This document shows, piece after piece, positions 9,717 through 23,521 of a DNA stretch of 64,000 nucleotides. The position numbers and the translations under genes were made by a program. The notes under the pieces were generated by a model that saw only the letters and a list, made by a program, of their open reading frames with translations, was not told where the DNA came from and ran no database searches. How positions within the stretch are numbered: position 1 is the stretch's first letter; each line of letters opens with the position of its first letter. Source of the stretch: Escherichia phage nieznany; the sequence record NC_052659.1; one strand, given 5' to 3'.

Positions 9717-10589
9717 ATGAAAGATTTGTACCAAGATGTTTTTTCTTTTTTAGATCGCACTTCAGAAACATACACTAGAGAGAATGCAAACAAACCTTCC
9801 CACCTCGTTAACACGCATAGGGATCTCTTGGCGGGGATTTTAAGCAAACATATGGCAATGACACAGATACTGCCAAAAAACTTGTCAGAATGGCATACAG
9901 AAGGTTTTGGACATATTCACGACTTGGATTATCTGCTCTCTCCTCTTACAAACTGTTGTCTTGTTAATTATCAAGATATGTTAGAGAATGGTTTTAAGAT
10001 CGGTGCTGCACAGATAGAAAAACCAAAATCTATTGGAGTAGCTACTACCGTGCTAACTCAAATCATCCAAGCTGTTGCCTCCAGTCAGTATGGAGGTCAG
10101 ACGTGTGCGCACATTGATAAAGGTCTTAGTCCTTATGTTGAAGCTAGTTTCCTTAAAAACATGGAGATAACCAAACGTCGCTACGGTTGTTATGCAAGGA
10201 AAGAAGCCCTAGAAATGACCGAACAAGATGTATATGACGCTATGCAAACTCTTTTGTATCAGGTTAACACTTTAATGAGTGTTAATGGACAATCTCCTTT
10301 TATTACAATCAGTATGGGTCTGGATACCTCTGTTTTTGGCAGAATGATCACAGCTAACTATCTTAAAGTGCATAGTAACGGTCTAGGTAAAGATCATGTA
10401 ACGCCTGTATTCCCTAAAGTTATTTTCTTTTTACAAGAAGGTGTTAACATGAAACCTAGTGATCCTAACTACGACCTTAAGCAACAAGCTTTGGCATGTT
10501 GTGCTGATCGTATTTATCCAGATTTTATTTCTGTTCCTTTGAACAAAGAAGTTACGGGGTCAGCAGATGGCACTGTTACGAGTATGGGT
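9717..10589 (+). CDS. nrdD: anaerobic ribonucleoside-triphosphate reductase NrdD, exon 1
   Basis: GFGHIHDLDY and downstream class III RNR-like sequence; reading frame runs into the intron and stops at 10598; exon ends on a U (..ATGGGT). Confidence 0.7.
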
Positions 10590-11360
10590 AAACTATAACT
10601 GCTCATGTAAAATCTGCCTAAACGGGGGAACTCTCAACAGAGACAATCCCGTGCTAAACGTAACAGAACTCCCAACACAGAAGAAGGGGGGTACTGATAT
10701 GAGAAAACAAATTCGTGATTTTGAAGGGTATGAAATTGACGAGCTTGGAAATGTTTATTGTACCAGGTATAAGGATGAAAGAATCCTTCGCTCGTGGGAA
10801 GAAATAAACACAGGATACCAACTTGTCAGAATACGTAAAAACAAGAAAACTGTTTGCTTTCGGGTGCACAGACTTGTAGCTGAAGCGTTTTTACCCAATC
10901 CAGACAATTTACCTTATGTGAAGCATAAAGGTGACAATAGGAAAGACAACAGTGTATACAATCTTGAGTGGGGATCTTGTCCAGACAACACGCAAGAGGG
11001 TTACGATAATAACTGTTATGCTTTCTACACAAGGTGTCACAGTGTAAAAGCTACTCATAAGGCTACTGGTGAAGTTTTTTACTTTAAAAGTCTGAGATGT
11101 TGTGCTGACGCTTTAGGGTTGGACAGAAAAAGAATATCTGCAATCTTAAAGCAAGGAGCACCAAATAATTATGATTATGAGTTCTGTTACGAAATGCCTA
11201 ACGACTAGCTGTGATGAATGTAGCAGCGTAGGGTGTAAGCCTATGACACCCCAAATGGTAGACATGCTTTAAGCATGAAGATATAGTCTGATCTGCATGG
11301 TGACATGCAGCAGCACGTAATGGTGCGGGAGTGGCCTTGCGAGCCACTTTGAACATAATG
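10590..11360 (+). mobile_element. group I self-splicing intron in nrdD with internal HNH endonuclease ORF
   Basis: Conserved core AAATCTGCCTAAACGGGGGAACTCTC...AGACAATCCCGTGCTAAA (10609-10657) closely resembles the T4 td/nrdD intron core; candidate IGS GCCTA pairs with exon end UGGGU; intron ends on G 11360; splicing restores ..TSMG|CRSFLSYY.. Confidence 0.7.
10699..11208 (+). CDS. HNH homing endonuclease (NUMOD4 plus HNH_3 type), intron-encoded
   Basis: FEGYEIDELGNVY (NUMOD4-like), VHRLVAEAFLPNP and KHKGDNRKDNSVYNLEWGS (HNH); ATG 10699 with AAGGGGG SD; lies wholly inside the intron. Confidence 0.8.
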   Translation: MRKQIRDFEGYEIDELGNVYCTRYKDERILRSWEEINTGYQLVRIRKNKKTVCFRVHRLVAEAFLPNPDNLPYVKHKGDNRKDNSVYNLEWGSCPDNTQEGYDNNCYAFYTRCHSVKATHKATGEVFYFKSLRCCADALGLDRKRISAILKQGAPNNYDYEFCYEMPND

Positions 11361-12302
11361 TGTAGAAGTTTCTTGTCATACTATGCAACAGAGCAAGGAG
11401 AAAAATATGATGGACGATTCAACCTTGGAGTAGTTTCTATCAACTTGCCTCTGATTGCTGCGGAAGCGAGAAGTAAAGGAGAATCTTTCACCGATCTTCT
11501 TAATAAACATATGGAGATAGCCTACGATGCTCACATGCTACGTGTAAACCGTATCAGACATACCAAAGCATCTGAAAACCCTATTCTTTTCATGGAAGGG
11601 GCTTTAGCGCGTTTAAATGCCAACGATGAAATTGGTGCTTTGTTTGAAGGTGGTTATGCTTCTATTAGTATTGGTTATGTAGGTCTTGCCGAAGCTTTGG
11701 AAATCCTTTATCCAGAGGAAAAAGATAAAAAGGAACTAGGTAAAAACATTCTGCAACATATGAAAGATGTGTGTGCTGTGTTTAAAGAACGATCTAAGTT
11801 GGCATTTAGTCTTTATGGAACTCCAGCAGAATCCTTGTGCTATAAATTTGCAACAGCTTTAAATGAAAAATATCCAGGTCTGGTAGAAAGAGACTATCTT
11901 ACTAATTCTTTTCATCAACCTGTATGGTTGGTAACAAATCCTTTTGAAAAATGGGATTATGAAGCAGGTTTTGCACAGATTAGCAATGGTGGTAACATAA
12001 GTTATGTCGAAACACCAAACTTAAAGAATAACTTAGAAGCTTTGGAGACTTTAGTAGACTACGCTTATGAACATATTCACTATTTTGGTATTAATCAGCC
12101 CGTGGATCAATGCTTTAAGTGTGGTTTTCATGGAGAATTTAAGGCAACGGCTAAAGGGTTTGAGTGTCCTAATTGTGGCAACCATGAAGAAGAAACTATT
12201 TCTGTAGTTAGACGTGTATCAGGGTATCTTTCTGCCCCTAATTCACGGCCTTATAACAAAGGTAAAATGCAGGAAGTTTTGCAAAGGGAGAAACATCTTT
12301 GA
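11361..12302 (+). CDS. nrdD: anaerobic ribonucleoside-triphosphate reductase NrdD, exon 2
   Basis: C-terminal zinc ribbon CFKCG..CPNCG and glycyl-radical motif RRVSGYL. Confidence 0.8.
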   Translation, partial: CRSFLSYYATEQGEKYDGRFNLGVVSINLPLIAAEARSKGESFTDLLNKHMEIAYDAHMLRVNRIRHTKASENPILFMEGALARLNANDEIGALFEGGYASISIGYVGLAEALEILYPEEKDKKELGKNILQHMKDVCAVFKERSKLAFSLYGTPAESLCYKFATALNEKYPGLVERDYLTNSFHQPVWLVTNPFEKWDYEAGFAQISNGGNISYVETPNLKNNLEALETLVDYAYEHIHYFGINQPVDQCFKCGFHGEFKATAKGFECPNCGNHEEETISVVRRVSGYLSAPNSRPYNKGKMQEVLQREKHL

Positions 12303-13596: not shown

Positions 13597-14253
13597 ATGA
13601 CAATAAAACATATCTCTTTTGATGTATGGAATACTCTTATTTCTGCCAATCAAAACTATGCAGATGCACGTACGCACACTATTGCTACATATGGTAGAAT
13701 GTCTGAACGTGCGGCAAAAGAAGCGTATAAAGATGCCAAAGAAATTATGGATAATGCTGCACTAAATGGGTGTGCAGAAGGTGTAGCATATGCATGGAAT
13801 ATGTTGGGAAGAAAGATAGGTTTAACCCCTGTAGAATCTGCACAAATGCGTTTTGAATGTGAGCAATGGTTTCTTAAATTTCCTCCACATATCGCTTTAG
13901 ATTTGCCAGTTTGTTTGCTATACTTGTCTGGTAAATATGATCTTAGTATTAAAAGCAATACTAATTTTATATCTGGGGATATTTTGCGTCGTGCTTGTAT
14001 GTTCGACAGTTGGAATTGTTTTGAATTTATGCATTTTTCAGACGAACATCTGTTATGTAAACCAGATCCTAGATTCTTTGTTAGGACCGCCACATATTCA
14101 AGCATTCCTTTGAAGGCTGAAGAGATTTTACATGTTGGGGACAGCGAAGAATTTGATGGTAAATGTGTTGACATAGGGATTAACTTCTGTCATATTAAGA
14201 ACCCTAACGACTTACTAGAGAAACTTAAAAGAGGAGAAATTGTAAATGCGTAA
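13597..14253 (+). CDS. HAD-superfamily hydrolase-like protein
   Basis: Motif I ISFDVWNTLIS and motif IV ILHVGDSEEFDGKCVDIG in the expected order; start at ATG 13597. Confidence 0.55.
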   Translation: MTIKHISFDVWNTLISANQNYADARTHTIATYGRMSERAAKEAYKDAKEIMDNAALNGCAEGVAYAWNMLGRKIGLTPVESAQMRFECEQWFLKFPPHIALDLPVCLLYLSGKYDLSIKSNTNFISGDILRRACMFDSWNCFEFMHFSDEHLLCKPDPRFFVRTATYSSIPLKAEEILHVGDSEEFDGKCVDIGINFCHIKNPNDLLEKLKRGEIVNA

Positions 14254-15073
14254 TCAAACTCAAATTTTTGCAAATAAATTTGATGACCTGGAAACTGCTA
14301 CTTTTGATATCAAAGATTATTCAAAATTGAAATTTGGTAGTAACCAAGCTGCGCGTCGTATGGGTAAAGAATTGGCACTTCAGTTTTTTGCTCAAGTGGC
14401 AATGAAACATATTGGGGAACAATTTGTTATCATTCCTTCTCCTTATAACCATGTGCATAATGCTGCAACAATGATGACAGATCATTTTATTAATTACTTT
14501 AATATGTTGCAAGCACAATATGATCAAGGTTGTTCAGCAGAACTGGATATTATTCATCGTAAAGTTAGCTATATCAACGATTATGGTTTCTTGGATAAAG
14601 CTAGTCGTAAGAAACTTATTGATGGGGATACATTCTACTGCAACAAAGAATTCTGGGGTGATAAGAAGCTTGTGTTCATTGATGATGTAAATATCACTGG
14701 AACTCATGAAGACAAACTGATTGAGATTCTTGATGAAAATCAAGTTAAAAATGATGTTTACTTCTTGTATTTTGCAAAATATGAAGGTAATCAAGCAGAT
14801 ACTGAAGCTAAACTGAATTTTAACTACATCAATACACCAGAAGCGTTTGTTAAAATGATTAATGAAGAACGTGATGCACAGTGTCTTGTTCGTCCTATTA
14901 AGTATCTTATGGGCCAAAATCACGAAGACTTCAAAATCATTCTTAGCCAATTGCCACACTACTATGTAGAGCAACTTTTCTTCGGATGTTTGGGAGAAGG
15001 TTACAACCGAATTTCAAAGTATGCTGAAAACTTTGAATTCTTGGATCGTTACACAAAACAACACATTCTGTAA
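14246..15073 (+). CDS. type I phosphoribosyltransferase (PRTase) domain protein
   Basis: PRPP-binding signature KKLVFIDDVNITGTH; AAGAGGAG SD. Confidence 0.6.
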   Translation: MRNQTQIFANKFDDLETATFDIKDYSKLKFGSNQAARRMGKELALQFFAQVAMKHIGEQFVIIPSPYNHVHNAATMMTDHFINYFNMLQAQYDQGCSAELDIIHRKVSYINDYGFLDKASRKKLIDGDTFYCNKEFWGDKKLVFIDDVNITGTHEDKLIEILDENQVKNDVYFLYFAKYEGNQADTEAKLNFNYINTPEAFVKMINEERDAQCLVRPIKYLMGQNHEDFKIILSQLPHYYVEQLFFGCLGEGYNRISKYAENFEFLDRYTKQHIL

Positions 15074-15086
15074 TAAGGAGCTAAAA

Positions 15087-15560
15087 ATGCTTAAAATGAA
15101 AACAGGTAATCTTATTGATGCCGCTAAAGCAGGTGAAGTAACTGTTATTGCTCATTGTTGCAATTGTATGTGTAATATGGGGGCAGGAATTGCTCCGCAA
15201 ATTAAACGAGCATTCCCTTATGCATATGCGGCAGATTTAGACACAACGGCTGGTGATCAAAGTAAGTTAGGTTCTTTTAGTTTAGGGGTGCCAGACGAAC
15301 AATCAGACCCTTTGGTATATAATCTATACGGGCAATACCGTTACGGATACAATGCTAAAGGTCGTCAGTTGGACTATGATGCACTTTACGATGCACTAAT
15401 AGCTATGGCTAATGATTTGCTTCTCCGTGACCAAAAATGTAAGATCGGCTTACCTATGATTGGCGCTGGATATGCTGGAGGTAATTGGGCTATCATCCAA
15501 GTGATGATTGAAGAAACTTTAGTAAAAACAGGTCACGATGTGACTATTTATAAACTTTAA
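15087..15560 (+). CDS. macro domain protein (ADP-ribose-binding/processing)
   Basis: VTVIAHCCNCMCNMGAGIAPQIKRAFP and later IGLPMIGAGYAGGNW match the macro-domain Gly-rich loops; ATG 15087 with TAAGGAG SD. Confidence 0.65.
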   Translation: MLKMKTGNLIDAAKAGEVTVIAHCCNCMCNMGAGIAPQIKRAFPYAYAADLDTTAGDQSKLGSFSLGVPDEQSDPLVYNLYGQYRYGYNAKGRQLDYDALYDALIAMANDLLLRDQKCKIGLPMIGAGYAGGNWAIIQVMIEETLVKTGHDVTIYKL

Positions 15561-15873: not shown

Positions 15874-16848
15874 ATGCAACTCGGTTTCCCAGTTATTGAT
15901 GTAGTTGTTTTAGTTGGTATTTTGGCATTGTCTATTGGTATCGATTTCTTTGGTCATAAAGAGAATAAAGAAATTGGAATTAAATCTGCTTTGCTTTGGT
16001 CTGTTTTTTGGATTGCTTTAGCTTTAGGATATTACGCATTCATTTGGGTAGAACATGGTAAAGAGTTTGCCGCGCTTTTCCTAAGTGGCTATGTGTTGGA
16101 AAAGAGTCTTTCTGTAGATAACCTGATGGTGTTCATGGCAATTTTTGCAAGCTTTGGAATTAAGAGCACACATCTCCAACATAAGATTTTACTTTGGGGG
16201 ATTGCAGGAGCCATTGTCTTCCGAGGTATTTTTGTTGCAGCAGGGACCGCTTTGTTTAACCTTCATTGGTCGGTCCAAGTGTTGTTCGGTTTGATTGTAG
16301 CTTGGTCTGCCGTGGCTATCATCAAAGGTGGTGACGAAGAAGAGGATATTGATTACTCTAAGCATTGGGCTGTTCGTTTAGTAGGTAAAGTTCTGCCTGT
16401 GCACAATGCACTAGATGGTGAAAAGTTCATTACCATTAAGAATGGTATTAAATATGCAACTCCTGCTCTTCTTTGTGTGTTTGTTATTGAGCTTACAGAT
16501 ATTGTCTTCTCTTTTGATTCAGTTCCGGCTGTGATCGGTGTGACACAAGAACCTCTGCTAGTTTATTCTGCAATGCTGATGGCTGTTCTTGGTTTACGTG
16601 CACTTTTCTTTGTGTTAAGTGTAGCTGTGAAATATCTGGTTCACTTAGAGAAAGCTGTTGCTGTGGTTCTGGTGTTTGTTGGTGCTAAACTTATGTATCA
16701 CCCGTTCGGTGAAACACTTCATGCCAAGTGGTCATTCCTCCCGCATGATATTTCCCCTAACGTAAGTCTGATGATTGTTCTAGGCACATTATCTCTTGGT
16801 GTTATTGCAAGCTTTATCTTCCCTGAAAAAGAAGAAGCTACTGTTTAA
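15874..16848 (+). CDS. terC: TerC-family integral membrane protein
   Basis: Multi-pass membrane protein with TerC signatures EKSLSVDNLMVF and DIVFSFDSVPAVIGVT. Confidence 0.8.
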   Translation: MQLGFPVIDVVVLVGILALSIGIDFFGHKENKEIGIKSALLWSVFWIALALGYYAFIWVEHGKEFAALFLSGYVLEKSLSVDNLMVFMAIFASFGIKSTHLQHKILLWGIAGAIVFRGIFVAAGTALFNLHWSVQVLFGLIVAWSAVAIIKGGDEEEDIDYSKHWAVRLVGKVLPVHNALDGEKFITIKNGIKYATPALLCVFVIELTDIVFSFDSVPAVIGVTQEPLLVYSAMLMAVLGLRALFFVLSVAVKYLVHLEKAVAVVLVFVGAKLMYHPFGETLHAKWSFLPHDISPNVSLMIVLGTLSLGVIASFIFPEKEEATV

Positions 16849-18473: not shown

Positions 18474-19064
18474 ATGTATACCGAGAGAGACTTGCAACTC
18501 TTGTGGTGGGAAGTGATGCAGGAAATAAAAGAAGATTTTCCTGTTTACTACAACATGTTACGTGAAGCAGGATATAAAGCTTGTGTTAGAAACAAAGTGA
18601 ATAACTCTTTCGGTTGGTGCAACTACCGAGATAAAATTGTTGTTGTAAATTGGCACTTGCATAAGAACTCTACAAGAGATATGATCGTGGATACAATGAA
18701 GCACGAAATTGCTCATGCTATTGATGGTTGTATGGGTAAGTTTAGTAGACACGGTGCTCATTGGCAAAAACTGGCAGCAGAGTTAGGGGCTAATCCTAAA
18801 GCCACTTCCAAAGAGCCGTTGAACCACGAATATAAATATGTTCTTGTTCTGGTAGATAGGTTTGCGACAAGATGTGTTAGAGGTTATAATCGTAAACCTA
18901 ATCGCATGTACCCAGGTAAGCAACCTAATATGTGGTTGAAATCAGATAAAGAAGGGACCGAAGGAAAATTATGGTTGTATAAATGGGACGATTGGGTTAA
19001 AGTAGCTAAAGAGTACGGTGTTTCACCATATATAAGAGATGCAGAAGAGGAGAATGAAGAATGA
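18474..19064 (+). CDS. SprT-like zinc metalloprotease domain protein
   Basis: HExxH motif in MKHEIAHAIDG with downstream HGAHWQKLAAELGA, typical of SprT-like domains. Confidence 0.65.
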   Translation: MYTERDLQLLWWEVMQEIKEDFPVYYNMLREAGYKACVRNKVNNSFGWCNYRDKIVVVNWHLHKNSTRDMIVDTMKHEIAHAIDGCMGKFSRHGAHWQKLAAELGANPKATSKEPLNHEYKYVLVLVDRFATRCVRGYNRKPNRMYPGKQPNMWLKSDKEGTEGKLWLYKWDDWVKVAKEYGVSPYIRDAEEENEE

Positions 19065-20173
19065 CAAGTCCATTTTTAAAAGCAGCTACTGGCGGTCAGA
19101 AGAAGCCTGAAATGAGCGTATTTGCTGCAACAACAGATGCAAGTAAATCTGTATTCGCTCCAAGCGTGTTAGATGCCAGTCCTGTTTATGCACCAGCGGC
19201 ACCGCAAGAAGTTCCAGTTTTGCCTTCTATGACCCGACAAGAGATCGAAGAGATTGGGGCAGAGGCAGGAACAACCTTGCGTTCCTTGAATGCCGAGGTA
19301 TTAAAACATCAACGTAGTAATCAAGGCGATCAGATGAGTGAACGACTCACAGCTTTGATTAAACAGGCAAAACAACTTGATCCAAACTCTATTAAACAAA
19401 GCAAGGGTATTACTAAACTCATTAAAAAAGTTATGGGTATGAAAGAAGATCTGTTTGGGGAGTTTGATAATGTTAATAACCGTATTGAAGAGTTGGTAAA
19501 AAACCTTCAAATGGATATTCGCAAAGAAGAAGATTCCTTGGTATATCTTGAAAAGCTACATCAAGCTATTGGACAATATGCTGCAAGTTTGAACCGAGAT
19601 ATGCAGCTTCTAACAGCAACCTATGAAAAAGAAGAACAAGCTTTGGCTGCTCTTCCAGAAGATGCAGTAGAACAGCGACAAGTGATCCGAGATACTTTGG
19701 ATCTTCTGGAGATTCGTATTGCAGATTTAAAAGCATTGCGCCTACTGTGTGTCCAAATGGGACCGCGTGTACAAGGTATGCAAAAAGTTTCTGCAAGCTT
19801 AATGCGATCTGCGCGTAACATAGTAAATAATGTTATTCCTGCTTACTCTGCTAACTTCTCAATGTATATCGAGAGCTTACGTCAAATGAAAGCAGCAGAG
19901 ACGCAGAATAACGTTCTTGATGAATTTAACCTGGCAATTAAACTGGGTAGCGATCTTGCCACACAGAATCAGATCGAAGCAGCAGCACTGGCTAACCGTC
20001 AAGTGTTGGATATTGAAACTCTGCGTCACGATCAGGAAAACTTGGTTAAGATGTTGGAAGAAACTAACCGCATCAATACGGAAGCCCGTGCTGCTCGTGT
20101 TGATTATATTAATGAAGTTCAATCTTTGGAAGACGGGATGGTAGCTGCTGTGAAACGAGGGCTTGGTAAATGA
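19061..20173 (+). CDS. all-helical coiled-coil protein, possible TelA-like
   Basis: 370 aa of heptad-rich helices; size and position between terC-like and terD-like genes fit TelA, but no diagnostic motif could be confirmed by eye. Confidence 0.35.
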   Translation: MTSPFLKAATGGQKKPEMSVFAATTDASKSVFAPSVLDASPVYAPAAPQEVPVLPSMTRQEIEEIGAEAGTTLRSLNAEVLKHQRSNQGDQMSERLTALIKQAKQLDPNSIKQSKGITKLIKKVMGMKEDLFGEFDNVNNRIEELVKNLQMDIRKEEDSLVYLEKLHQAIGQYAASLNRDMQLLTATYEKEEQALAALPEDAVEQRQVIRDTLDLLEIRIADLKALRLLCVQMGPRVQGMQKVSASLMRSARNIVNNVIPAYSANFSMYIESLRQMKAAETQNNVLDEFNLAIKLGSDLATQNQIEAAALANRQVLDIETLRHDQENLVKMLEETNRINTEARAARVDYINEVQSLEDGMVAAVKRGLGK

Positions 20174-20739: not shown

Positions 20740-21302
20740 TGGGTTGTTTTAGCTTTTTGTGCAAAGAATCGGGCAAAGCTGCCCTTTCTACTTCTTTCGA
20801 CGGATCACCTTGTTATCTCTTTCTTTTGAAGGACGGTGTTGTTATTGAAGAGATGTATGGCAACTATGATAGTTATGGTTGTGTTTTCTCTGGAAAGGAG
20901 GATGAAAATGGCGTTCGTGAACGGTTCGAATGGGCTATGGATTGGGGTAAGGTTTGTGATTTAATGCATTCCTCGAATCCAAGGGATGGTATCGCTATGG
21001 TGCTGGAAGAGTATTTTACAGGTGAAATCCCTACAGAACAATCTGACGGAGATCCTAACCAAGGTTGGGGTGATGGCGAAGAAGATCCAGATTGTTTTTT
21101 CAGCACAGAAAAGAATAAGTTTAAACGTGTTGACAACCCTTATCACAAAGTGCATAATACTCTCATTGAAACAGAAGATGACAAGATGGAAATTGAAGAA
21201 GATGATCCTCTTGTAACACTTCCTATAAGTGAGTTACAAAAGATCACTAAGGAAGCTTACGATTTGGGCTTCAAAATTGGTAGAGGAGGTATGCGTGTTT
21301 AG
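20739..21302 (+). CDS. hypothetical acidic protein (187 aa)
   Basis: Coupled ORF; no recognisable motif. Confidence 0.5.
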   Translation: MGCFSFLCKESGKAALSTSFDGSPCYLFLLKDGVVIEEMYGNYDSYGCVFSGKEDENGVRERFEWAMDWGKVCDLMHSSNPRDGIAMVLEEYFTGEIPTEQSDGDPNQGWGDGEEDPDCFFSTEKNKFKRVDNPYHKVHNTLIETEDDKMEIEEDDPLVTLPISELQKITKEAYDLGFKIGRGGMRV

Positions 21303-21573
21303 ATTCAATATTCAAGAAGAAAAAAGTCAGGATTTACCTATTGCTTTCGAAGATCTTGACGTAGGGGCCACATTCATGTATTATGATGCCTATGAAGACG
21401 CAGGGTTGGATACCTACCGTAACTTGGTGTTCATTAAAAATTCCACAAACAGTGCGATTTGTATTAATGGATCACTAGCACAACGAGGCTATACTCATTG
21501 CATCCCACCAGATACAAATATGGTGGAAGTAGATTTAGAAGTTACCAATATTACACTTAAGAAGGAGAAATAA
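21295..21573 (+). CDS. small protein, paralog A of a duplicated pair (precedes the vWA gene)
   Basis: GTG start after GAGGAGG, parallel to the GTG start of paralog B; shares FxFxIxEEK..DLDVGxTF.Y..A.DE.GLD and C-terminal ..ITLK with 22595-22864. Confidence 0.45.
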   Translation: MFRFNIQEEKSQDLPIAFEDLDVGATFMYYDAYEDAGLDTYRNLVFIKNSTNSAICINGSLAQRGYTHCIPPDTNMVEVDLEVTNITLKKEK

Positions 21574-21574
21574 T

Positions 21575-22369
21575 ATGTCCGAGAAAATCAGCCTGAAAAA
21601 ACGTCAAGAAAACCTTGCTTTCTCTCTGAAAAAGAATAAGAACCTGAATGAAGGTAAGATTGTTCTTCGTGTAGCATGTGCTCTAGATATTTCTGGTAGT
21701 ATGCATGGTCTATATTCTAGTGGGGTAGTGAGTGATTTTGTAGGTAAACTGCTTCCTTTTGGTATGCTGTTCGACGATAATCAACAAATTGATATGTGGG
21801 CCTTCAATACGAGTTCCCAAGAGCTTACTCCAGCAACAGCAGACGTTTACGATGACTATGTTGGTAAATGTATGCGTAATGTTCGTATCGGAGGTGGAAC
21901 AAATTACGCCCCTGTAATGGCAGATATCTACGATGAGTATTTTGGCACTGTTACCAAATATATTACCACTAAACAAGTGGTACAAGAGGAGGCTCCAAAG
22001 AAAGGCTTCTTTAATCGTCTGCTTGGTAAAACTGAAACAGTGTCTGTAGAGCGTGAAAAAGTTGTAGCTGTATCTGAACCAGGTGCTGACGTTACCCCTG
22101 GTGTTGTATTCTTCCAGACGGATGGTGAGAATGGTGATCCTAGTGCTGTTCGTCGTCTTATTGAAGAGAATAAGAATAAACCTATTTATTGGTTCATGGT
22201 TGGCGTTGGTAATGAGAAGTTTGGCTTCCTGAAAGAACTGGCAAATGCTTATGATAATGTTGGTTTTATTGGCATTAAAGATTTAGACTTGACAGATTCA
22301 GAGCTTTATGACAAACTCTTATCTGAAGAGTTCGGAGAGTGGGTTGTTAAAGTAGGTGCTAAAAAATGA
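21575..22369 (+). CDS. von Willebrand factor A (vWA) domain protein, TerY-like
   Basis: MIDAS motif DISGS (DxSxS) near the N-terminus; N-terminal MSEKISLKK echoes the TerD N-terminus. Confidence 0.7.
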   Translation: MSEKISLKKRQENLAFSLKKNKNLNEGKIVLRVACALDISGSMHGLYSSGVVSDFVGKLLPFGMLFDDNQQIDMWAFNTSSQELTPATADVYDDYVGKCMRNVRIGGGTNYAPVMADIYDEYFGTVTKYITTKQVVQEEAPKKGFFNRLLGKTETVSVEREKVVAVSEPGADVTPGVVFFQTDGENGDPSAVRRLIEENKNKPIYWFMVGVGNEKFGFLKELANAYDNVGFIGIKDLDLTDSELYDKLLSEEFGEWVVKVGAKK

Positions 22370-22614
22370 TCGACGAGCTTGCCTCTCAAGTCGTAGAAAA
22401 TTATTGGCGCGAGAGAGAAGCTTTCATTATGCGCAGTCTCAAAGAGTATTTCATTGGGACTGTGCGAATGGAAGATATTGTAAGTAGAGTAGAGATTCAT
22501 GTATGGCCCGATTATGAAGAATGGGTTGACAAAGAAAATGAAAATGCTATAATTCTTCGTATATACAAACCGGAGATAACATTAGGAGGAAGAAGTGTTA
22601 AACTTCGAAATTGA
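22366..22614 (+). CDS. hypothetical protein (82 aa)
   Basis: Coupled ORF. Confidence 0.45.
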   Translation: MIDELASQVVENYWREREAFIMRSLKEYFIGTVRMEDIVSRVEIHVWPDYEEWVDKENENAIILRIYKPEITLGGRSVKLRN

Positions 22615-22864
22615 TGAGCAAAAAGTAAATAAACGATGCCTTACCATTAAAGATTTGGATGTAGGAGATACTTTCGTCTATGAAAATGCATTTGACGAAA
22701 ATGGTTTAGACCTTAGTGAAATCATTGTTTATTTAAAAGTAGATGATGGGGAAAATGATTATTCTGCTGTAGAACTAAACCATCATGCACAATTAGTATC
22801 AATCCAAAACACATCTAAGCTTTTGGAAGTAGAATTGACTGTAACTGGTATTACACTTAAATAA
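22595..22864 (+). CDS. small protein, paralog B of a duplicated pair (precedes terD)
   Basis: GTG start after AGGAGGA; sequence parallels 21295-21573. Confidence 0.45.
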   Translation: MLNFEIDEQKVNKRCLTIKDLDVGDTFVYENAFDENGLDLSEIIVYLKVDDGENDYSAVELNHHAQLVSIQNTSKLLEVELTVTGITLK

Positions 22865-22879
22865 TAGAGGAGACAAAAG

Positions 22880-23482
22880 ATGACTGATAAAATTTCCCTG
22901 AAAAAAGGCTCTAGCGAAAAAATTTCCCTGAAGAAAGTTGCTCCGGCTCTGAAAGAACTGCGCCTGGAATTCTCTTGGAAATCTGATTCTAAACTGGATC
23001 TGGATGTAAGTGCACTGGTTTGTCGTCACAATGCCGCTGGCAATCCTGAAATGCTGTCTGCACGTCATCTGGTTTGCTATGCTAACAAGTTTGATCCTGA
23101 ACGTTCTACCTTCGCTGGTGACGATGTTCGTGATGGGACTGGCAGCATGGAGCAGATTGATATTACTCTGGCTAAAATCTCTCCTGATGCACAAGAGATT
23201 GCCTTTGTTCTGACCATTGATGATGATACAGGTCTGAAACGTTTTGGTCATGCTTCTGAAGGTATGCTTAAAATCTTCGACTCCGAGCGTAATGTGGAAA
23301 TTCTGGATTTTGACTTCCTGGCTCCTGAAGTAGCTGGCAACACAATCTGCCACGTGGCTTCCCTGGTTCGTGAAGATGGAGAATGGAAGCTGAAAGCATA
23401 TGGTGTAGGTAAAGCTGGTCTGGATATTTGCGATGTGGTGATGGCCTTCGGTGGTAAAAAAGAATGGTATGAATGTCCATAA
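22880..23482 (+). CDS. terD: TerD-family protein
   Basis: N-terminal KISLKKGSSEKISLKK..LDLDVSALV and C-terminal GEWKLKAYGVGKAG match the TerD domain along its length; about 200 aa as in bacterial TerD. Confidence 0.85.
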   Translation: MTDKISLKKGSSEKISLKKVAPALKELRLEFSWKSDSKLDLDVSALVCRHNAAGNPEMLSARHLVCYANKFDPERSTFAGDDVRDGTGSMEQIDITLAKISPDAQEIAFVLTIDDDTGLKRFGHASEGMLKIFDSERNVEILDFDFLAPEVAGNTICHVASLVREDGEWKLKAYGVGKAGLDICDVVMAFGGKKEWYECP

Positions 23483-23500
23483 TAATTAACAAATGATTTT

Positions 23501-23521
23501 GAGGGGGAGAAGTCCCCCCTC
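23501..23521 (+). terminator. GC-rich hairpin, possible terminator
   Basis: GAGGGGGA-GAAG-TCCCCCCTC immediately after terD; weak T-tract. Confidence 0.35.

Follow-up and report, generated by a model that had tools for sequence, protein, structure and literature searches.

Two paralogous small proteins beside the vWA-TerF-like and TerD genes of a phage Ter cluster

Ter systems, with TerD, TerC, TelA and TerF-vWA as components, are widespread in bacteria, plasmids and large phages, and their biochemical mode of action is unknown. Phage-encoded Ter systems containing TerC, TelA, TerD, a TerF-type vWA protein and a phosphoribosyltransferase (PRTase) were reportedly described by Anantharaman, Iyer and Aravind in 2012. 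In large phages, Iyer et al. (2021; PMC7824862) list TerD, TerC, TelA and the vWA protein of the TerF type, and they propose competition against superinfecting phages as the role of these genes. A similar Ter gene subset is noted in Klebsiella phage phiKp34 (PMC8386662). We analyzed a 64,000-nucleotide stretch of Escherichia phage nieznany (NC_052659.1; hereafter the window), which holds the same gene set in the order PRTase_3, TerC, SprT-like, TelA, vWA-TerF-like and TerD, and whose carrier is again a large virulent myovirus. Our subject is two small genes, small A and small B, that lie next to the vWA-TerF-like and TerD genes. The portions of PMC7824862 and PMC8386662 considered here do not mention a small SH3-like family beside the vWA-TerD pair, whereas in the loci described below this family is present in one or two copies. 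The Ter cluster as a whole has already been described, and the small proteins alone are its undescribed part.

Based on the observations presented below, we favor, at about an even chance of being right, the following explanation. This part of the window is the end of a phage Ter cluster that carries vWA and TerD, small A and small B are lineage-restricted and dispensable accessory genes whose products would act as binding partners of the two Ter proteins, and only the small gene was duplicated.

The two small genes and their Ter neighbors

Small A (21295-21573, plus strand) encodes 92 amino acids with an isoelectric point (pI) of 4.4, and small B (22595-22864, plus strand) encodes 89 amino acids with a pI of 4.3. 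The initial annotation had regarded both as GTG-initiated paralogs, each placed directly upstream of a Ter-type gene, and had proposed a pairwise alignment as a check. This alignment extends over the full length of both proteins with 34% identity and 54% positives (BLASTP, E 2e-14), so that the similarity is significant and the paralogy stands. Both proteins also match the profile of phrog_11278 from end to end (small A, E 4.2e-51, positions 1-92 of 92; small B, E 7e-45, positions 1-89 of 92). PHROGs v4 lists this family as of unknown function and without context, in contrast to the Ter linkage, fold and paralog history worked out here. No family match was obtained for the small proteins in Pfam or NCBIfam, and the RefSeq record labels both open reading frames (ORFs) as hypothetical proteins with ribosome-binding sites.

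Both GTG codons follow an AGGAGG sequence at a distance of 5 nt. The orthologs of phiWec188 and of the contigs L014 and L006-L010 carry an ATG at the same aligned position, which supports the GTG starts of small A and small B as correct. The stop codon of small A is separated by 1 nt from the ATG of the vWA-TerF-like gene and that of small B by 15 nt from the ATG of TerD, and the downstream products begin with MSEKISLKK (vWA) and MTDKISLKK (TerD), as originally noted. The nucleotide stretch reported to recur at both junctions is likewise there: the 11-mer ATTACACTTAA is present at 21550-21560, at 22850-22860 and nowhere else in the window, with 0.11 occurrences expected. It encodes the I-T-L-K sequence common to the ends of small A and small B. 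Because orthologs differ synonymously within this stretch, we regard it as a by-product of protein paralogy and not as a DNA signal.

The gene behind small A (21575-22369, plus strand) encodes a vWA-TerF-like protein of 264 amino acids (PF10138, E 1.6e-37, 130.1 bits against a cut-off of 29.4). It carries the DxSxS motif of the metal-ion-dependent adhesion site (ALDISGSM), of which D38, S40 and S42 do not vary among 13 phage homologs (alignment A5). A search among solved structures revealed no sequence relative of this protein. The gene behind small B (22880-23482, plus strand) encodes a TerD-domain protein of 200 amino acids (PF02342, E 3.2e-28, 98.9 bits against a cut-off of 25.3) that matches the solved TerD structures 2KXT (E 1.5e-15) and 3IBZ (E 2.9e-14). 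Its residues 80-92 (window 23117-23155), GDDVRDGTGSMEQ, align with the acidic Ca2+-binding loop GDN-TGEGDGDDE of these structures. Several acidic residues are replaced, and Ca2+ binding may be altered in the phage TerD. Between the vWA-TerF-like gene and small B lies an ORF of 82 amino acids (22366-22614, plus strand; phrog_22387, function unassigned), which the initial annotation had omitted. It was found only where small B occurs and is absent from phi92 and Klebsiella phage 05F01.

The arrangement of these genes suggests that each small copy would be expressed together with one Ter protein. From the ORF of 187 amino acids upstream of small A through small B, the genes are tightly packed, with overlaps of 8, 4 and 20 nt and a 1-nt spacer; the 8-nt overlap is that between the stop of the 187-amino acid gene and the start of small A. 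The Shine-Dalgarno sequence GGAG of the vWA-TerF-like gene is located inside the last codons of small A, which specify its KKEK tail. In every copy of the small gene that precedes a vWA gene, the last codons ((K/E/G)EK) contain this GGAG, and the stop codon either lies 1 nt from the vWA ATG or overlaps it. Small A and the vWA-TerF-like gene thus look translationally coupled, with the ribosome-binding site of the second gene embedded in the tail of the first.

Small B is preceded by a perfect σ70 consensus promoter with a TGn-extended –10 region (TTGACA-16 nt-TATAAT; 22526-22553, plus strand), which is located inside the 82-amino acid ORF and ends 42 nt upstream of the small B start. This is the only σ70 site in the window with 12 of 12 matching positions. 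It remains at 12/12 in phiWec188, L014 and L015, although the codons around it are not the same there and its distance from the start is changed by 3 nt. Because the match is kept while the overlapping codons change, selection on the promoter itself is indicated. This promoter probably drives small B and TerD, which look like one short transcription unit with small B as its first gene. In phi92, which lacks small B, a σ70 site with 10 of 12 matches is present in the 73-nt gap before TerD. Behind TerD, a G+C-rich hairpin with a seven-pair stem (GAGGGGG/CCCCCTC; 23501-23521, plus strand) is a possible, weak candidate for the terminator of this unit: the minimum free energy of the whole region is –15 kcal/mol with a z-score of only –1.5, and the hairpin has no clear T-run. 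A further site, with 11 of 12 σ70-like positions (21130-21158, plus strand), lies inside the 187-amino acid ORF and ends 137 nt upstream of small A. It is kept in phi92 and phiWec188, but its function is uncertain, since the coding sequence across it (RVDNPYHKVHN) is equally kept.

We also examined the small protein by structure prediction. With 18 diverse aligned sequences, AlphaFold2 returned a confident model (predicted local distance difference test 85.1, predicted template-modeling score 0.72), whereas an alignment of 8 close sequences only reached 42.7 on the former scale and gave no usable model. The confident model contains strands at residues 26-29, 46-48, 53-56, 67-69 and 75-78 and a helix at 30-36, and is predicted to form a small β-barrel with weak resemblance to SH3-like domains. 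The predicted topology, a barrel of five to six strands with one short helix, resembles that of SH3-like barrels such as the C-terminal domain of ribosomal protein L2, the C-terminal domain of DtxR/IdeR, FeoA, KOW, Tudor and HspQ, but these matches are weak and generic. A Foldseek search of the model against the PDB gave nothing significant, and one against BFVD retrieved small B paralogs (phAPEC8, Ro121lw) together with many uncharacterized small phage proteins and nothing else. Only F4, G24, F27, G37 and L38 are invariant in the family, which argues for a structural or scaffold role and against a catalytic one. All members are acidic (pI 4.3-5.5) and end in a conserved amphipathic strand, V-x-L-x-V-x-x-I-x-L-K, which is similar to the hxLxK motif of the Ter proteins (see below) and opposite in charge. 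We also considered that the small protein could be a degenerate piece of TerD; this was ruled out by a single hhalign comparison (probability 0.8%, E 0.066).

Occurrence of the small family

To describe the distribution of the family, we relied on an exhaustive hidden Markov model (HMM) search over 1.84 billion representative proteins, as a word-indexed search with the alignment of small A and small B gave close relatives only. The exhaustive search returned 11 small members (cluster representatives of 87-93 amino acids), two fragments and a number of giant repeat proteins. The latter (2,000-5,700 amino acids) were rejected as homologs: those checked are arrays of DUF11, He_PIG/Big_9 or ankyrin repeats, and their E values of 1e-26 to 1e-9 (P0011, P0014, P0016 and others) accumulate from many weak matches to a short D-x-G-D-T-F-like segment. 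Such matches call for caution in automated family expansion. Scans of IMG/VR with the single proteins P0035 and P0027 found nothing, and no member of the small family in the exhaustive search came from a context readable as bacterial.

Genomic contexts were taken from the contigs encoding these members and from a vWA-based scan, and all loci were scanned with HMMs. All 11 small representatives adjoin a vWA-TerF-like gene, a TerD gene or both, so that the expected co-occurrence with TerD/vWA genes elsewhere is indeed observed. The adjacency holds down to a vWA identity of about 50% and a small-protein identity of 23%. Three arrangements were found. The order small-vWA-TerD is present in phi92, other Justusliebigvirus, Klebsiella phage 05F01 and the loci L011-L013, L023 and L028. 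The order small-vWA-82-amino acid ORF-small-TerD, as in the window, is shared by Phapecoctavirus, phiWec188, PsgM04F, L014 and L020; L015 shows it from the vWA gene onward, its contig ending just upstream of that gene. In contigs of uncultured phages, the small gene lies between the two Ter genes (vWA-small-TerD; L006, L007, L008, L010 and L024), and L009, whose contig ends upstream, is consistent with this order. In the phage database, 208 records contain the vWA-TerF-like protein and about 125 contain a member of the small family. Because the small family is thus specifically linked to Ter-type genes, an uncharacterized Ter-associated accessory protein is a fair reading of it.

A second, unrelated family of small proteins (110-116 amino acids) occupies the same two slots in phages without the SH3-like small protein. 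Its members are similar to each other, starting with M..(I/L)I(W/Y)EN(I/V)PE(S/T)T and ending with VV(S/T)GF(Y/I)(M/Y), and are encoded between vWA and TerD in L018 (4744-5094) and directly upstream of vWA in L019 (3653-3985).

The comparison of vWA proteins also revealed the distribution of the N-terminal motif with which both Ter proteins begin. The vWA-TerF-like protein of the window starts with a twin hxLxK hairpin (KISLKK...FSLKK), and the N-termini of both vWA and TerD are Lys-rich. All phage vWA homologs share the twin motif KISLKK...xSLKK, whether or not a small protein accompanies them, and hxLxK is also found in bacterial stand-alone vWA-TerF-like proteins (for example, Neobacillus P0097). 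The bacterial TerF-type proteins P0103 and P0106 combine the same two domains and carry 3 or 4 hxLxK repeats before the vWA domain, in the TerD-vWA linker and outside both Pfam models. Because it is present throughout the family, including bacterial homologs and TerF linkers, the KISLKK-type N-terminus is an inherited family trait. A Pfam scan of the 45 N-terminal residues of the vWA protein found no TerD match, the motif being too short for profile detection. In the bacterial proteins TerD is fused to the vWA-TerF-like domain, whereas the phages encode the two separately, vWA followed by TerD. The phage small protein, in turn, is unrelated to TerD, and the exhaustive search gave no bacterial counterpart of it.

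The N-terminal hairpins of vWA and TerD are more alike within a genome than between genomes: 121 motif positions are identical, against 101.4 ± 4.2 in genome shuffles (15 loci, with kinship not corrected for). Examples are L025, where both proteins begin with MAKVSLKK, L032, where both carry LSLEK, and L034 with LSLEK beside ITLEK. This likeness suggests a shared partner or mutual pairing of the vWA and TerD N-termini, independent of the small protein.

Accounts of function and origin

Under the favored explanation, we infer that the small proteins would have no enzymatic activity and would bind vWA-TerF and TerD as an adaptor, chaperone or regulator, possibly at the basic twin hxLxK hairpin that both Ter proteins carry at the N-terminus. 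Copy A would be coupled to vWA-TerF by the 1-nt spacer and the ribosome-binding site within its tail, copy B to TerD by the conserved promoter. We counted the acidic character of the small proteins, opposite the Lys-rich N-termini of the Ter proteins, in favor of this reading. The adaptor role hinted at in the initial annotation is plausible from sequence.

Several observations weigh against it. The binding-partner role is deduced from synteny and co-expression signals, and dense packing and coupling of genes are common in phage genomes generally. None of the 1.84 billion representative proteins was found to join the small domain to vWA or TerD. The small protein is absent from 20 of the 24 vWA-TerD loci retrieved through vWA, including L021 and L022, close relatives whose vWA is 65-69% identical to that of the window. 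While the small family always occurs with Ter, most vWA-TerD pairs lack it: its presence implies Ter, the converse is false, and the Ter proteins do not need it. Natural disruptions point in the same direction (P0007, P0009, P0075): small B is truncated to 54 amino acids, or a deletion joins the N-terminus of the 187-amino acid protein to the C-terminus of small A (55 amino acids). In Escherichia phage KKP 3954, the vWA gene itself is in two pieces. Disruptions of small A, small B and vWA together indicate that the module is dispensable for propagation.

These points bring up the strongest competing explanation, a possible though rather doubtful one in our judgment: the small genes could be independent accessory genes, moron-like or active in early host takeover, that occupy a permissive and often remodeled slot and are co-transcribed with the Ter genes without any functional interaction. 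Their dispensability fits this proposal, as do the unrelated 110-116-amino acid family in the same two positions of L018 and L019, the close relatives that carry other small ORFs or nothing in the slot, and the abundance of uncharacterized small phage proteins of similar fold in BFVD. It does not readily explain, however, why the family was never found away from vWA/TerD despite very deep divergence and differing flanking genes, why it occupies two different positions that each touch a Ter gene, or why the coupling of small A to vWA is kept in every copy before vWA.

A more specific version of the binding-partner explanation is unlikely as it stands and is put forward tentatively. Here, the small acidic barrels would be dedicated partners that recognize the basic twin hxLxK hairpin at the N-terminus of both TerD and vWA-TerF, perhaps by strand addition through their own C-terminal V-x-L-x-V-x-x-I-x-L-K, and would thereby set the time and site at which the Ter proteins assemble beneath the membrane; the duplication would then have provided each Ter protein with a cognate partner. 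The hairpin as target is speculative.

The position of each small gene immediately upstream of its would-be target could also suggest a nucleic-acid-binding regulator of SH3, KOW or Sm-like type that acts on translation or transcription of the downstream Ter gene. We consider this improbable, as all members are acidic and share no basic patch, the similarities in fold are weak and unspecific, and Rfam revealed no RNA element between 20500 and 23700.

The initial annotation had further proposed that an ancestral cassette of a small gene plus a Ter gene was duplicated as a two-gene module, with the downstream partners of the two copies later diverging, one to vWA and one to TerD. The parallel layout, with a small gene followed by a gene starting with M(S/T)xKISLKK, and the strong promoter-like site upstream of each pair agree with this model. 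It did not hold up, and we regard it as very improbable: vWA-TerF-like and TerD belong to separate Pfam families and do not share a fold, the hxLxK N-terminus is common to the vWA-TerF-like proteins as a family, vWA-TerD pairs that lack a small gene are widespread among phages, bacterial TerF-type proteins contain both domains in a single chain, and relatives exist that combine one small gene with both Ter genes (phi92, 05F01 and the distant vWA-small-TerD phages).

A neighbor-joining tree of 14 members points to another history. It shows three groups: the B clade, located between vWA and TerD in Phapecoctavirus-like phages, the A clade, located before vWA and including phi92 and 05F01, and the single-copy members of more distant phages, all between vWA and TerD. 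Identities are 26-41% between A and B, 49-67% among A orthologs across genera and 38-48% among B orthologs. On this tree of about 90 residues, the most economical scenario would start from an ancestral copy between vWA and TerD that gave rise to a second copy upstream of vWA; some lineages would later have lost B along with the 82-amino acid ORF, or both copies. The 82-amino acid ORF was also considered as a possible paralog of the 187-amino acid gene upstream of small A, and this was ruled out (E 0.055 over 31 residues), which leaves the small gene alone as essentially the duplicated unit. As judged from these comparisons, only the small gene appears to have been duplicated or relocated within a pre-existing vWA-TerD pair; the event would have involved the small gene, plus the 82-amino acid ORF and the promoter, and not a small-plus-Ter module.

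That the small ORFs are not real genes, and their similarity due to chance or a residual non-coding duplication, could be suspected from the GTG starts, the short length and the missing Pfam/NCBIfam family, but is refuted by conservation and has a negligible chance of being true, given paralogy at E 2e-14, homologs that are conserved over the full length at identities as low as 23% and have ATG starts and Shine-Dalgarno sequences, a confident fold prediction and an existing PHROG family.

The surrounding cluster and implications

The window belongs to a Phapecoctavirus: over the 5.2 kb surrounding small A and small B, it shares 99.8% identity with Escherichia phage ESCO13 and 98-99% with dozens of further genomes of this genus (Stephanstirmvirinae, ∼150 kb). 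Records of Campylobacter phage B15, Acinetobacter phage vB_AbaM_ABPW7 and Klebsiella phage ZCKP1 share 98.6-99% identity with the window over the same length, and Pseudomonas phage PsgM04F has the gene layout of E. coli phage phiWec188. The records naming other hosts reflect either an unusually broad host range or mislabeled hosts.

Upstream of the vWA-TerD end, the cluster comprises a ComF-like phosphoribosyltransferase gene (PRTase_3; 14246-15073, plus strand; PF15610, E 2.9e-42), a gene for a TerC-family membrane protein (15874-16848, plus strand; PF03741, E 3e-40), a SprT-like ORF (18474-19064), assigned because its counterparts in related contigs carry the SprT-like Pfam mark, and a gene for a TelA-family protein (19061-20173, plus strand; PF05816, E 3.2e-33). 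A gene for a SleB-type cell-wall hydrolase follows downstream of the TerD region. Using the definition of a Ter-dependent stress/conflict system given in PMC7824862, we found TerC, TelA, TerD, the TerF-type vWA and PRTase co-located by Pfam matches between 14246 and 23482. Against the known anti-phage defense proteins of PADLOC-DB 2.0, the small proteins, vWA, TerD, TelA and TerC gave no match at E ≤0.01.

Two further observations concern the genes before TerC. The PRTase_3 gene overlaps the next ORF (region 14246-15560, plus strand), which shows a weak Macro-domain match (E 1.8e-4) just under the Pfam cut-off, and both lie directly upstream of TerC; they may form a nucleotide-derivative arm of the Ter system. 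Farther upstream, nrdD, the gene for anaerobic ribonucleotide reductase, comes in two separate ORFs (9717-10598 and 11331-12302; region 9717-12302, plus strand). Between its halves lie an ORF for an HNH/I-HmuI-like homing endonuclease (10567-11208) and, at 11071-11310, a match to a group I intron (RF00028) that reaches 39.7 bits where the gathering score is 50 (E 2.3e-8 for that stretch).

The small proteins are a modest, lineage-specific addition to a known phage Ter cluster and, judging from the sequence comparisons, probably optional helper subunits. The analysis refines the annotation of about 125 Stephanstirmvirinae genomes in which both genes are listed as hypothetical, and revises the proposal that a single duplicated cassette gave rise to vWA and TerD. 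Being confined to contact with vWA and TerD genes, the small family offers a cheap experimental handle on Ter. If the small protein binds vWA or TerD, it would mark an interaction surface, possibly the shared N-terminal hairpin, and could serve to isolate the complex by pull-down, or to disturb it, during infection. Should recognition of the hairpin prove true, the Ter system would have its first defined element of protein-protein recognition.

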